Made by a program: the position numbers and the translations under genes. A model generated the notes under the pieces. It was not told where the DNA came from. It searched no databases and worked only from the letters and a program-made list of their open reading frames with translations. DNA of 51,682 nt, taken from the NCBI GenBank assembly GCA_039715055.1, contig JBDLID010000004.1, positions 1 to 51,682 of the forward strand. The letters run 5' to 3'. This document shows, one piece after another, positions 16,367 through 50,673 of the stretch. The stretch is from Thermodesulfobacteriota bacterium (GTDB lineage: Bacteria > Desulfobacterota > Desulfobulbia > Desulfobulbales > Desulfocapsaceae). Within the stretch, counting starts at the first letter, position 1. Each line of letters starts with the position of its first letter.

Positions 16367-17230
16367 TCAACCGGCGGCGAGCAGCTGCCCGAACAGCCTG
16401 GCGTTTCTCGGTGCCTGGGCCCGGACATGATTGTTGAAAAATACCGCTCCGCTTGAGGCCCTGCTGCAGATAACCGACATATGGTCGCGCAACCAGCTCT
16501 TCAGCTCCTCTTCACTGTAGTCGTAGTCGAATTTCTGCTGCATATTGGCCGATCGCCAGCCCCTTTCATTGCGGCCATGAAAGCGGATATAAAAAAGGTC
16601 GGGATTGGTCACCACATCAAGCAGGGGAAAAAGACCGGGCAGTTGCGGAGCGTCAACGGTCACCAGGGTGACTCCTCGTTTCTCAAGCTCGGCAAAAACA
16701 GAATCCCGGGCCCAGGAACGATGACGAAATTCAACGGCCAGCGGCAGCCCGGCCAACCCGTCGAGCAGCCTGGCCAGATAGCTGCGCCTGGAGTGAGTCC
16801 AGTCAAAATCAGGAGGAAGCTGAATGAGGATGGCCAGTAAACGGTTCTTCAACGGAGCGATTCCCTGGCGATAAGAGCGCAGCTGTTCGGGCCACCCGGC
16901 ATCGACTTCATGGGTCAGGGTTCGGGTCAGCTTGGCGGCAAAACAGAAGTGGTCCGGAGCTCTGCTGACCATCCGCTCCACAGCCTCGGCCCTGACCATC
17001 TGGTACCAGGTATAGTTAAGCTCCACCACTGAAAATTTTTGACCATAGAGCGGCAGCATGTCAGGGGTTTTGGTCAGTGATGGATAAAAACCGCCGTCCA
17101 CCCACTCCGTATAGGAATAACCGCTGGTTCCGATCCGCACCCTGCTCTCCTGTGCAGAAGAGTGGTTTTGGACCATATGGACCTGCGGCAACGGATCCGT
17201 CTGCTGTTTCATAACCTCTTTGCTGCTCAC
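16367..17230 (-). CDS. DUF72 (YecE-like) family protein. It is translationally coupled to lexA through a GTGA overlap. An alternative internal ATG start is possible.
   Basis: The conserved DUF72 N-terminus is RIGTSGYSY, and the family-typical length is about 270 aa. Its start codon overlaps the lexA stop. Confidence 0.75.
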   Translation of the reverse strand: MSSKEVMKQQTDPLPQVHMVQNHSSAQESRVRIGTSGYSYTEWVDGGFYPSLTKTPDMLPLYGQKFSVVELNYTWYQMVRAEAVERMVSRAPDHFCFAAKLTRTLTHEVDAGWPEQLRSYRQGIAPLKNRLLAILIQLPPDFDWTHSRRSYLARLLDGLAGLPLAVEFRHRSWARDSVFAELEKRGVTLVTVDAPQLPGLFPLLDVVTNPDLFYIRFHGRNERGWRSANMQQKFDYDYSEEELKSWLRDHMSVICSRASSGAVFFNNHVRAQAPRNARLFGQLLAAG

Positions 17231-17841
17231 ATCTGTCCACGGATGACGCCGACCACCTTACCCTGGACCAGCAGCTCGCCGAACCCATAACGTTTTGCGT
17301 CGAACTCCTTGTTTTCAGGGCGAAGCTCAATACAGTCGTCATGGCGAAAAAACCGCTTCACAGTTGCCTCTTCACCGTGGAGAAGGGCCACTACAACCTC
17401 CCCGTTTTCCGCATACTGACGTGGTTCACACACCACAAAATCGCGGTCGAGAATCCCGGCGTCACGCATGGATTGTCCATCCACCCGGAGACAGAAAAGA
17501 TTGTCACCGGGAAACATTGCAGCGTCAACCCACACCGATCCATCCCACTCCTGCTGAGCATACATGGGCAGACCGGCGGTAATCTGCCCGATTACCGGCA
17601 GCTCACGACCGGCCCCACTTTTTTTCTCAGGTGGAGAACCGGACAGCAGGCGGATGGTGCGACTGTAATGACCGGCCCGCTCGAGATAGCCTTTTTTTTC
17701 AAGCTGACCAATAAACTGGGCCACCGCAGAATGGCTTATTCCCAGATCCAATGCGGCTTGACGCAGGCTTGGAGCCCGGCCCTGGTTGTCTAAACATTCT
17801 TTGAGGTAATCGAGAAAGGCGCTTTGTTTGGTGGTCAGCAT
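17227..17841 (-). CDS. lexA: LexA repressor: winged-helix N-terminus plus an S24 autopeptidase C-terminus.
   Basis: The 204-aa ORF has an HTH in the N-terminal region. The C-terminal S24 domain shows Ser/Lys dyad context (VDGQSMRDAGI...VVALLHGEEATVKRF). Confidence 0.9.
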   Translation of the reverse strand: MLTTKQSAFLDYLKECLDNQGRAPSLRQAALDLGISHSAVAQFIGQLEKKGYLERAGHYSRTIRLLSGSPPEKKSGAGRELPVIGQITAGLPMYAQQEWDGSVWVDAAMFPGDNLFCLRVDGQSMRDAGILDRDFVVCEPRQYAENGEVVVALLHGEEATVKRFFRHDDCIELRPENKEFDAKRYGFGELLVQGKVVGVIRGQM

Positions 17842-17847
17842 GAGAGA

Positions 17848-17992
17848 AGGGTGTAGGGTTCAGGGTATAAGGTTTAGGGTATAAGGTTTAGGGTATAAAA
17901 GCAGGGTGCAGGGTTTAAGGTATAGGGTTTAAGGTTTAAGGGCTAAGGGTATAAGACGGGGTGCAGGGTTGAAGGTACAGGGTTTAAGGATT
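17848..17992. repeat. Degenerate tandem array of ~7/14-bp G-tract repeats (GGTTTAGGGTATAA and variants) containing the telomere-like TTTAGGG. Thirteen GGG tracts occur on the + strand, which is the lexA template strand.
   Basis: Read directly from the sequence. Exact tandem 14-mers occur at 17871-17884 and 17885-17898. The array begins 7 bp upstream of the lexA ATG. Confidence 0.8.
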
Positions 17993-18004
17993 AAAAATCA
18001 CCAA

Positions 18005-18042
18005 TGTACATATACATTATCTTGACAATGGGGAAATGTCAA
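18005..18042 (-). promoter_or_regulatory. Candidate lexA promoter on the - strand: TTGACA (18042-18037), a 17-nt spacer, then TAATGT (18019-18014). The palindrome TGTACATATACA (18006-18017) overlaps the -10 and is a candidate SOS operator.
   Basis: Hexamer matches and the TGTA-N4-TACA dyad were read from the sequence. The position is consistent with autoregulation. No validated LexA-box consensus exists for this lineage. Confidence 0.3.
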
Positions 18043-18084
18043 TACACTTTGTCTGGCTGTTACCCTCACTCCTGGCCCGCTGGA

Positions 18085-18122
18085 CAAAAAAAGGGGGAAA
18101 CCGGAAATACCGGCTTCCCCCC
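18085..18122 (-). terminator. Rho-independent terminator for the DUF1566 gene: GGGGGAAGCCGG / CCGGTTTCCCCC hairpin with one mismatch, followed by a U7 run on the - strand.
   Basis: Inverted repeat at 18093-18104 and 18110-18121. An A-run at 18085-18092 gives the T-run on the - strand. Confidence 0.6.
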
Positions 18123-18150
18123 TGGTTGGAAGTTTAGATGGATGTAACTG

Positions 18151-19095
18151 CTACTCGATGGTTCGGCAGAGACGACCGAAACCTCCGGGAATGGTGCCTG
18201 ATGACCAGAACGATCTTCCCTGCTTGTAATCAACAAACCAGTAGCCACCGGGCTTTCGTTTGGCGGCCACAAAGATGAACGGCTGTTCCTTGGAAAAACA
18301 GTTGTCGAGATAAAGGCCTTTAGGGTTGCGCTCCCTTTCCATGAGCGACATGGCCTCTTCCAGCGTTGGCAGGCGCCATTTGTCGTGCCCACCATATCCT
18401 TCTTTGCCGTCGATCTGCTCAATAACGCGCTGCATACTGCGGATTGAATTGATGTCCAGGCCGCCCCGCTGCCACATGAGGCCGGTACGAAGATCAGTGA
18501 CTGTTAACCCGTCATCATTGTCAACCAGATGATTACCAAAGTCACCTTCCGGGTTGAGTTCGGCGTCAAAAAAATTCCACTTTTTGATCACCGCCTCGGC
18601 CTCTTCATCGGTAAACAGGTCGAATTCAGATGGAAATACTACCTGCTCCCCCTCAAACGTTGAGCTGCCGGCCTTGGGCAGATCTCCCATGTACTCCTGC
18701 TCAGCCTGACTCTCTTTTAAAGGAACCACAAAAGCATTATCCTTGGCTTCCACGACATTGCTCTTCAGCCATTGCTTGAGAGCATCGTCAATGGCGTAAC
18801 TTCGCTCAAAAAATGAGGAACTGCCCTGGCTGCGGACACATTCCTTCACCATATCGACTGGGGCCTCAATCTCAGCTACAACCTTGGCGTGCTTGACCCC
18901 TCGCTCCATGAGACATAACTTGGGTACTTCTCCCCAGTTATCGATAAAAAAATAAAGAATCCGCTCGCTGTTATTTCGAACCCTCTCTCTGCCCCCCCAT
19001 GATTCGTAAGTACCGAAAGTCATGTCGGGAGTCATCTCCCAGTCAATTGTTTTTATTGTATCATTTCCAATATCCAGATTCTTGAACATACCCAT
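18151..19095 (-). CDS. Hypothetical protein with a C-terminal DUF1566 (Lcl-like) domain. The N-terminal ~190 aa are unrecognised.
   Basis: The C-terminal motif TGLMWQRGGLD...WRLPTLEEAMSL is typical of DUF1566. There is no signal peptide. Confidence 0.55.
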   Translation of the reverse strand: MGMFKNLDIGNDTIKTIDWEMTPDMTFGTYESWGGRERVRNNSERILYFFIDNWGEVPKLCLMERGVKHAKVVAEIEAPVDMVKECVRSQGSSSFFERSYAIDDALKQWLKSNVVEAKDNAFVVPLKESQAEQEYMGDLPKAGSSTFEGEQVVFPSEFDLFTDEEAEAVIKKWNFFDAELNPEGDFGNHLVDNDDGLTVTDLRTGLMWQRGGLDINSIRSMQRVIEQIDGKEGYGGHDKWRLPTLEEAMSLMERERNPKGLYLDNCFSKEQPFIFVAAKRKPGGYWFVDYKQGRSFWSSGTIPGGFGRLCRTIE

Positions 19096-50208: not shown

Positions 50209-50673
50209 ATGAAACTTGTAACAACATCCAAAGTAATTGGTGCGGCAATTCTCTTCTCCATGGCAGCCTGGCCTGTTCAGGGAATCTCCTCACAGAACCC
50301 GGTTGATCTCGATTCACTCCGGCAGCAGACTCTCAATAACACCTTGCAGGCAGATCTGGAATCACCTGTTAATACAGACTGGATTGTAGTCGCCGGCAGA
50401 GGCGGCGGGAACGGTGGTGGAGGCAATGGCAATGGTGGTGGTGGTAACGGCGGCGGTGCGGGAGCCGGAAACGGCAATGGCAACGGTGACGGTTCAGGGG
50501 ACGCGCCAGGGGACGGAACCGGTAACGGTCCCGGCGACGGATCAGGAGACGGCCCACAGGATGGCACCGGTTTTGGCGCGGGCAATGGCCCGGGTAACGG
50601 TGTTCATGAACCGGGAACAGGCGGCGGCCCTGGAAATGGCATCCACGTCCCGGGAACCGGGCTGACTGATTAG
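50209..50673 (+). CDS. Secreted low-complexity Gly/Asn/Asp-rich repeat protein.
   Basis: A signal peptide (MKLVTTSKVIGAAILFSMAAWPVQG) and a ~60-aa N-terminal region are followed by GNG/GDG/GPG repeats (GGGNGGGGNGNGGGGNGGGAGAGNGNGNGDGSGD...). Codon periodicity is consistent with the + strand. Confidence 0.55.
   Translation: MKLVTTSKVIGAAILFSMAAWPVQGISSQNPVDLDSLRQQTLNNTLQADLESPVNTDWIVVAGRGGGNGGGGNGNGGGGNGGGAGAGNGNGNGDGSGDAPGDGTGNGPGDGSGDGPQDGTGFGAGNGPGNGVHEPGTGGGPGNGIHVPGTGLTD

Follow-up and report, generated by a model that had tools for sequence, protein, structure and literature searches.

The 51,682-nt contig JBDLID010000004.1 of a Thermodesulfobacteriota genome (GCA_039715055.1), whose whole length of 51.7 kb we call the window, carries directly in front of the SOS repressor gene lexA a degenerate tandem array of ~20 heptads with the core A-R-G-G-T-N-N (17848-17992). 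This array is an example of a common class of 7-base tandem repeats that lie beside gene ends, and we consider it fairly probable that it is a generic G-rich heptamer simple sequence repeat (SSR), or minisatellite, of open reading frame (ORF) boundaries, which is tolerated in this orientation as an unstructured leader. A role specific to the SOS response, as suggested in the preliminary description, is not supported, since the same heptad arrays adjoin unrelated housekeeping genes in many phyla; as an SOS-specific element the array does not matter, and the evidence points to a generic repeat class. The locus nonetheless constitutes a natural experiment, in which a putative LexA-operated promoter and a probable Shine-Dalgarno (SD) sequence are parted from the ATG by 145 nt of near-G-less, structure-free RNA, with lexA and its operon intact despite the displaced SD, and this in front of a master regulator.

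Anatomy of the array and of the lexA locus

The array is the best-scoring repeat of the window, called by Tandem Repeats Finder (TRF) at 17848-17994 with a period of 55 (2.7 copies, 83% matches, score 187), and called also at period 14 (7.7 copies, 71% matches) and at period 7. It stops 6 nt upstream of the lexA ATG, and its G-rich strand is the lexA template, just as the preliminary description had placed it; the counts given there were likewise reproduced, with two exact copies of GGTTTAGGGTATAA (at 17871 and 17885) and 13 GGG tracts, and TTTAGGG units number 2. Upon allowing up to three mismatches, GGTTTAGGGTATAA matched 13 times in the window against 2.7 expected, a number reached in 0 of 100 shuffles, and 11 of the 13 matches fell within the array. 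The plus strand of the array contains 40% G and 5% C, which on the lexA sense strand reads as 40% C and 5% G.

Among 18 in-register heptads, A1, G3, and G4 are invariant (18/18), position 2 takes G or A, T predominates at position 5, and positions 6 and 7 vary freely. Core-to-core spacing equals 7 nt in 14 of 16 intervals, with two register breaks, and GGG heptads alternate with AAGG heptads along the array. At a higher order, three blocks of ~55 bp can be aligned with a mean column identity of 77%. The longest perfect tandem tract is found at period 14, with 37 nt (17862-17898); at period 7, perfection extends over no more than 16 nt. Growth may have occurred first by slippage of heptads or 14-mers and later by duplication of the ~55-bp blocks.

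Comparison with six orthologous lexA loci at the DNA level (L001, L003, and L167-L170; LexA 68-71% identical) identified the array as an addition to an otherwise conserved regulatory region. All six share the lexA-DUF72-polymerase synteny. In every one, the -35 element reads AATGTATATTGACA, 16 nt of spacer lead to a -10 hexamer, and ~5 nt beyond this lies an AATGTA-N4-TACATT-type palindrome. The -35 context GTATTGACAT of the window is kept in each of them, and the putative lexA promoter of the window, which was missed by a strict consensus scan, was recognised by its sequence and this conservation. The heptad array is absent from all six. As these relatives share promoter and operator yet carry no array, the array is, by this comparison, a lineage-specific insertion or expansion within the lexA 5′ untranslated region (UTR). 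In those relatives with a reliable called start, the palindrome is followed within ~25 nt by an SD sequence (GAGGTG, GAGAGG, or AAGGGGG) and the ATG, and GAGGTG(A) lies after the operator and 4-7 nt before the ATG in L003, L167, and L169. In the window, an SD scan found none within 25 nt of the lexA start; a GGTGA after the operator, now ~155 nt from the ATG, is probably the ancestral SD displaced by the array, from which a short T/A run separates it. Hence, expansion of the array would have pushed the SD and the lexA ATG apart.

From the position of the promoter, we predict a transcription start site (TSS) near 18009 and a 5′ UTR of about 167-168 nt that would include the whole array. With a conserved promoter and operator on its upstream side, the array is likely to be transcribed into the C-rich lexA leader anticipated in the preliminary description. 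Along the minus strand, the elements follow one another as terminator, -35, -10, palindrome, GGTGA, T/A run, array, TCTCTC, and ATG (Table 1). The upstream neighbour is an Lcl_C-domain gene (18151-19095), and the terminator that follows it keeps its transcript apart from the lexA promoter.

Table 1. Coordinates of the features at the lexA locus, ordered from the gene to the upstream terminator
Feature	Position	Strand	Description or basis
lexA, 204 aa	17841..17227	minus	Pfam PF01726 LexA_DNA_bind and PF00717 Peptidase_S24
Spacer TCTCTC, 6 nt, array to lexA ATG	17842..17847	minus	Sequence
Higher-order block 1	17848..17902		55 bp, 8 heptads; holds the only perfect tandem tract
Higher-order block 2	17903..17959		57 bp; block alignment
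Higher-order block 3, truncated	17960..17994		TRF and block alignment
GGTGA, probable ancestral SD remnant	17998..18002	minus	Position compared with L003, L167, and L169; inferred homology
Perfect palindrome AATGTA-N4-TACATT, AATGTATATGTACATT, candidate LexA operator	18003..18018		Position and sequence kept in relatives
Putative sigma-70 promoter	18016..18042	minus	TTGACA 18042-18037, 15-nt spacer, GATAAT 18021-18016
Intrinsic terminator of upstream gene	18091..18123	minus	14-pair stem and T-run

Several candidate identities of the array were tried and rejected. No second array, and no inverted C-rich partner on the plus strand, was found in the 51.7-kb window; with inverted partner and second copy absent there, and with a minimum free energy (MFE) of -0.8 kcal/mol for the array RNA, a hairpin of the repetitive extragenic palindromic (REP) or bacterial interspersed mosaic element type was ruled out. 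The promoter scan detected no promoter on the plus strand or within the array, and a divergent G-rich small RNA or CsrA-type sponge was dropped on this ground and because the motifs are GGT, not GGA. No ORF of at least 40 aa crosses the array on either strand, and an upstream extension of lexA is impossible. Rfam 15 gave no match over the whole window at the gathering threshold and, for 17600-18250 at E ≤ 1, none on the array, the sole match being sbrA (E = 0.22) on the terminator hairpin at 18086-18154. A plant-type telomere repeat was likewise rejected, as the array is internal, has bacterial flanks that match related loci, and contains only 2 TTTAGGG units.

This last resemblance also raises the idea of an assembly artefact, or of a chimera with eukaryotic telomeric (TTTAGGG)n DNA from the sample, given that the units look like the plant-type telomere repeat and that many metagenome matches to a 21-mer of the array are TTTAGGG-like sequences on short contigs. 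We hold this to be extremely improbable: apart from the scarcity of TTTAGGG units, the bacterial flanks on both sides (promoter and operator on one, lexA on the other) match the layout of the relatives, and a second assembler gives an identical junction. In the Logan assembly of run SRR27843389, which is independent, the 43 nt beside the ATG recur identically before the contig breaks off inside the repeat, and the array/lexA junction is therefore not an artefact of one assembler.

The surrounding gene set is that of a mutagenesis operon, with lexA as the first gene of lexA-DUF72-imuB-like (Y-family polymerase)-dnaE2. LexA matches at 100% the LexA of a Thermodesulfobacteriota metagenome-assembled genome (MAG), and its nearest other matches, at 67-73% identity, come from Desulfobulbaceae-like MAGs; close relatives of this LexA are absent from the database, and this lexA was seen in a single MAG contig and in one truncated Logan contig. 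The DUF72 gene (16367-17230, minus strand) overlaps the lexA stop codon. In the window, as in five of six related loci, DUF72 stands between lexA and the Y-family (ImuB-like) polymerase plus dnaE2, whilst L001 has the order lexA-DUF72-dnaE2. The usual occupant of this place in the lexA-regulated mutagenesis cassette is imuA, and the position of DUF72 in the operon suggests an SOS or DNA-damage role for it in this clade.

Regarding the operator, AATGTA-N4-TACATT is, from its conservation, a candidate LexA box for this clade, and no further copies that might serve as SOS boxes were found in the window beyond the lexA site. In the window, the operator overlaps the -10 element and sits ~11 nt nearer the -35 than in the relatives. 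A second related palindrome, AATGTATATTGACATT, overlaps the -35 in the relatives L003, L167, L169, and L170 and is degenerate in the window (GTGTATTGACATT, 18034-18047), where an inverted repeat TTGACA-N9-TGTCAA (18022-18042) covers the -35 element and spacer of the putative promoter. We also observed that 5′-end gene calls of lexA are inconsistent within this clade. The called LexA starts of L168 (222 aa) and L170 (218 aa) look misplaced, the called ATG of L168 lying inside the operator palindrome and an ATG upstream of the called start of L170 following the operator.

Distribution and placement of the repeat class

Upon scanning 185,579 species (one genome each) for four consecutive ARGGTNN heptads, with a minimum of 26 nt, we obtained at least 120 genome stretches, compared to ~17 expected by chance in 596 Gb over both strands. 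Many of the matches listed far exceed 26 nt, the longest reaching 292 bp, and they stem from Cyanobacteria, Bacteroidota, Acidobacteriota, Desulfobacterota, Planctomycetota, Chloroflexota, Patescibacteria, Proteobacteria, and other phyla. Among these matches, several genomes carry more than one array (L020 and L112; L025 and L079), several loci carry two or three, and the adjoining genes are unrelated to one another, e.g., mutL, metH, truA, and aspS. The variable heptad positions differ between the genomes that have arrays of this class. The case that the preliminary description named as refuting its own reading, a generic repeat at many unrelated loci, holds true for the class, though not within this genome over the 51.7 kb examined.

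In metagenomes, the exact 21-mer AGGGTATAAGGTTTAGGGTAT was found in 41 stretches, none of which was linked to lexA. About 15 of the 41, on contigs as long as 300 kb, are short arrays flanked by ordinary ORFs, and many of the rest consist of long TTTAGGG-like arrays whose contigs are short and which are probably eukaryotic telomeric DNA. Arrays of hundreds of bp with TTTAGGG, TATAGGG, or TTCAGGG variants occur in L127, L129, L131, L136, L137, L143, L145, L153, and L160-L164; several of these contigs stem from a few shared samples (prefixes Ga0075108/9, Ga0208413, and Ga0222648). The arrays of this group look eukaryotic (algal), telomeric or subtelomeric, and not bacterial.

The arrays follow a placement rule. 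For the 120 genome loci listed, with ORFs called crudely as the longest ones reaching 100 aa or more, we counted 85 of 131 arrays as intergenic, and in 43 of 54 cases (p = 1.4e-5) an intergenic array lay nearer to the ORF on the 5′ side of its G-rich strand. Of the arrays no more than 50 nt from a start codon, 18 have the C-rich and 3 the G-rich strand as sense (p = 0.0015); of those no more than 50 nt past a stop codon, 27 have the G-rich and 7 the C-rich strand as sense (p = 0.0008). The lexA array, with its G-strand antisense and less than 50 bp from the ORF, belongs to the dominant upstream class. GGGNATC-type heptamer SSRs in Xanthomonas and Nostoc obey the same rule, and these repeats are transcribed, tied to no gene function, and unlikely to be phase-variation loci, with no role identified (Rehm et al. 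2015, PMC4692102). Whereas the published rule was drawn from three genomes, our survey finds it for arrays of more than 100 genomes across many phyla.

At individual loci, C-sense arrays end 3-44 nt before the starts of MutL, MetH, TruA, AspS, a NikB/OppB-type permease, and malic enzyme. Profile alignments with NCBIfam identified all six starts as true N-termini, and most have no SD or no room for one, showing that heptad arrays directly abut the start codons of housekeeping genes that lack an SD. As such arrays precede these six verified starts, C-rich leaders are compatible with housekeeping expression.

At gene ends, a further arrangement is frequent among the downstream arrays and occurs in many genomes (L029, L033, L064, L074, L076, L108, L114, and L158), where a G-rich array 0-40 nt past the stop codon is followed by a short spacer and an inverted C-rich array. 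These inverted pairs form long, imperfect hairpins in which the G arm invariably precedes the C arm, and look REP- or terminator-like while being built from heptads. Cultured strains carry especially regular arrays: chromosome II of Aliivibrio fischeri ES114 has (AGGGTCT)x15 running from a stop codon into a terminator-like hairpin (L070, 5668-5770), Methylotuvimicrobium sp. KM1 has (AAGGTGA)x42 (L092, 3929-4220), and Providencia sp. PAZ2 (L063) is a cultured, genetically tractable carrier of a perfect array of this class. Perfect arrays in tractable strains such as ES114, KM1, and PAZ2 are useful for experiments on the class.

Leader RNA, translation of lexA, and alternative readings

The RNA read from the array in the lexA sense is predicted to be almost devoid of structure. 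Its 145 nt have an MFE of -0.8 kcal/mol, the weakest value in the contig, where background folds average -37.5 +/- 8.9 kcal/mol (1064 windows, both strands). For the predicted whole 5′ UTR (~167 nt) the MFE is -3.4 kcal/mol, and for the surroundings of the ATG (-30 to +30) it is -1.7 kcal/mol; folding the leader together with the lexA coding region yielded weak long-range pairs only. The C-minus-G skew of the leader is the highest in the contig (0.375 over 80 nt, ~4 standard deviations above the mean). As it has almost no G, the leader is free of SD-like motifs and nearly free of ATG, GTG, and TTG. The second-highest C-minus-G skew on the minus strand belongs to another repeat-rich stretch at 50386-50556 (TRF periods 12, 21, and 24; units such as GAGGCAACGGCAACGGTGGTG), which lies inside an ORF (50209-50673, plus strand) and is probably a Gly/Asn/Asp-rich coding repeat.

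These properties suggest how a generic repeat could be tolerated at such a position. From the conserved, presumably LexA-regulated promoter, the array would be transcribed as a ~145-nt, G-poor, C-rich, and nearly structure-free leader, and LexA would be translated without an SD from an unstructured initiation region, via standby or S1-type ribosome loading. SD-less translation of lexA is plausible, as about half of the genes in the window have no obvious SD by the SD scan and as housekeeping genes in other phyla carry leaders of this kind. The amount of LexA is probably no longer the ancestral one. In the SOS system, LexA acts as a repressor of its own promoter, and through this negative autoregulation an altered translation would be partly compensated, which may explain the fixation of the insertion. 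SD-less initiation at lexA is also plausible because unstructured CA-rich 5′ tails promote translation initiation through ribosome standby (PMC5934652). Selection would tolerate the C-rich-sense orientation abutting the ATG, as it brings no decoy SD or start codons, whereas the reverse orientation would put SD-like AAGG/AGGG, GTG/TTG/ATG codons, and G-tracts into the leader.

Some points weigh against this account. The TSS, and with it the presence of the array in the mRNA, is deduced from promoter conservation. The 51.7-kb contig examined contains one array and does not itself show dispersal within the genome. The promoter of the window has a -10/operator spacing that is altered relative to the relatives, and lexA regulation may thus have been remodelled here. 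The strong bias in position and orientation might just as well be the mark of a positive function. Finally, the invariance of A1, G3, and G4 in 18/18 heptads, with free positions 6 and 7, could signify a sequence-specific constraint, be it a binding factor or the G-tracts, and the A-GG invariance at 7-nt spacing is the one observation that a passive repeat explains poorly.

The C-rich heptad leader might instead be an active cis-regulatory module, e.g., a multivalent pad for Rho, for S1 or a standby 30S subunit, or for a heptad-reading RNA-binding protein, which we judge to be unlikely overall. If true, how much LexA is present would depend on the leader, and so would the threshold at which the lexA-DUF72-imuB-dnaE2 mutagenesis operon is induced, and ARGGTNN/NNACCYU arrays at start codons would be a widespread device across phyla for initiation or attenuation that replaces the SD; such a module would account for the placement rule of G-rich heptamer SSRs. 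The findings of the survey make the hypotheses of SD-independent initiation and of Rho loading testable, e.g., in Aliivibrio fischeri ES114.

The most serious alternative is a Rho-dependent attenuator, in which the leader acts as a Rho utilization (rut) site and transcription terminates unless ribosomes initiate well, setting the output of lexA-DUF72-imuB-dnaE2. The leader would suit this purpose, being untranslated over more than 80 nt, with 40% C and 5% G, the strongest C-minus-G skew and the weakest fold in the contig, and no SD to couple translation tightly; moreover, each heptad supplies a YC dinucleotide, and heptad pairs give a 14-nt period. As outlined in PMC13650167, rut sites are loosely defined and biased toward C over G. 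However, rut-like composition arises automatically for any G-rich repeat that is read on the complementary strand, and C-sense arrays also precede aspS, metH, and mutL, where constitutive premature termination would be costly. We consider attenuation by Rho to have a small chance of being correct.

A multivalent binding array would be a different way of accounting for the invariant positions. Here, a hypothetical protein (S1, Csp, or another single-strand binder) would read A-R-G-G-T in the DNA or A-C-C-Y-U in the RNA and thereby control lexA, in line with the strict 7-nt periodicity, the 18/18 invariance of A1, G3, and G4 with a purine at position 2 and free positions 6-7, and an analogous proposal for TAACTGA heptamer repeats that overlap ribosome-binding sites (PMC4679880). 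Yet a 7-bp period runs out of phase with the DNA helix, the variable positions differ between genomes, and the carrier phyla have very different proteomes. Invariance can furthermore stem from amplified founder units, as the three ~55-bp blocks are copies of one another. Such a dedicated reader of the heptads therefore seems rather improbable to us.

The preliminary description had also pointed to DNA structure, and in that reading a G-quadruplex (G4) in the template strand, or an i-motif in the coding one, would alter the passage of RNA polymerase or the replication fork, linking lexA to replication stress. The G4 potential turned out to be borderline. The array holds 13 GGG tracts, contains motifs once loops of up to 12 nt are permitted, and has a G4Hunter mean of 1.01 with a maximum of 1.52 over 25-nt windows. 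By analogy, GGGNATC heptamer repeats form G4s in vitro and their C strands form i-motifs (PMC4692102), and the orientation of a potential G4 sequence downstream of the TSS alters output in vitro (PMC7341879). Against this, no canonical G4 motif (G3+ tracts with loops of 1-7 nt) was found in the window, since GGG heptads alternate with AAGG heptads, and the minimum-energy fold that ViennaRNA computed for the G strand RNA with its G-quadruplex option was free of G4s. In addition, the class adjoins genes of all functions, with nothing specific to SOS, and Rehm et al. identified no regulatory role for their repeats. A structural switch at lexA appears quite improbable on balance.

A contingency locus, finally, would tune lexA through slippage that changes the number of heptads, as does (ATCTTTC)n in the 5′ UTR of hmw1A, where the repeat is transcribed and expression is inversely proportional to its length (PMC12721329). 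With that precedent, one may cite the location of a heptamer repeat between promoter and start codon, the perfect 37-nt tract at period 14, and the break of a short-read assembly inside the repeat. The case for a hypervariable repeat, as put forward in the preliminary description, is nevertheless weak: beyond that longest perfect tract the array is degenerate (71% matches at period 14), by which slippage is suppressed, and lexA is not a surface or host-interaction gene. The leader also lacks a G-rich hairpin partner, unlike hmw, as the near-absent fold of its 5′ UTR reflects, and Rehm et al. argue against phase variation for G-rich heptamers (PMC4692102). We regard this explanation as very improbable, and a generic ORF-boundary repeat tolerated as an unstructured leader as the reading to be preferred.

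Comparison with known repeat systems

The leader resembles rut sites and Rho-dependent 5′-leader attenuators in being an untranslated RNA of more than 80 nt that is C-rich, G-poor, and unstructured, but rut sites are not tandem repeats. Cyanobacterial short tandemly repeated repetitive (STRR) sequences are, like the lexA array, intergenic tandem heptamers, and many of the listed scan matches lie in Nostocales, Rivularia, Richelia, Moorena, and Lyngbya. The classical STRR units are CCCCAAT, TTGGTCA, and CAACAGT, and these set STRR sequences apart from the array, whose units differ.

Two further heptamer systems share its position relative to genes. The (ATCTTTC)n repeats of hmw1A and hmw2A in Haemophilus influenzae (PMC12721329, PMC8262952) are pyrimidine-rich, transcribed heptamers of a 5′ UTR; they are, however, perfect and phase-variable, pair with a G-rich arm into a hairpin that is cleaved by RNase III, and control an adhesin, whereas here degenerate repeats make up an unstructured leader in front of lexA. 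The TAACTGA repeats of marine Beggiatoaceae, Cyanobacteria, and Bacteroidetes (MacGregor 2015, PMC4679880) are heptamer direct repeats located a few nt upstream of starts, in a fixed orientation and in the place of the ribosome-binding site, with downstream genes of unrelated functions that mostly have no SD. They differ from the lexA array in their unit, in having no G/C asymmetry between strands, and in their usual number of 2-6 copies.

There is a likeness in kind to the SSRs of Rehm et al. (Xanthomonas and Nostoc, GGGAATC and GGGGA(C/T)T; PMC4692102), which also consist of 7-nt head-to-tail units with a G-tract in each, are intergenic with a G/C asymmetry between strands, follow the same placement rule, vary in length and degeneracy, and neighbour genes of all functions. 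Inverted, hairpin-capable pairs occur among them, as they do in other genomes of the present class. In contrast, their unit is GGGNATC or GGGGAYT vs ARGGTNN here, and they prefer four units vs ~20 units with a 55-bp higher-order period; the lexA array, moreover, has no canonical four-tract G4 motif, and its host is a Desulfobulbaceae-like Thermodesulfobacteriota MAG. Overall, the array in front of lexA is in kind a member of the class of G-rich heptameric SSRs, but it belongs to a different sequence family.

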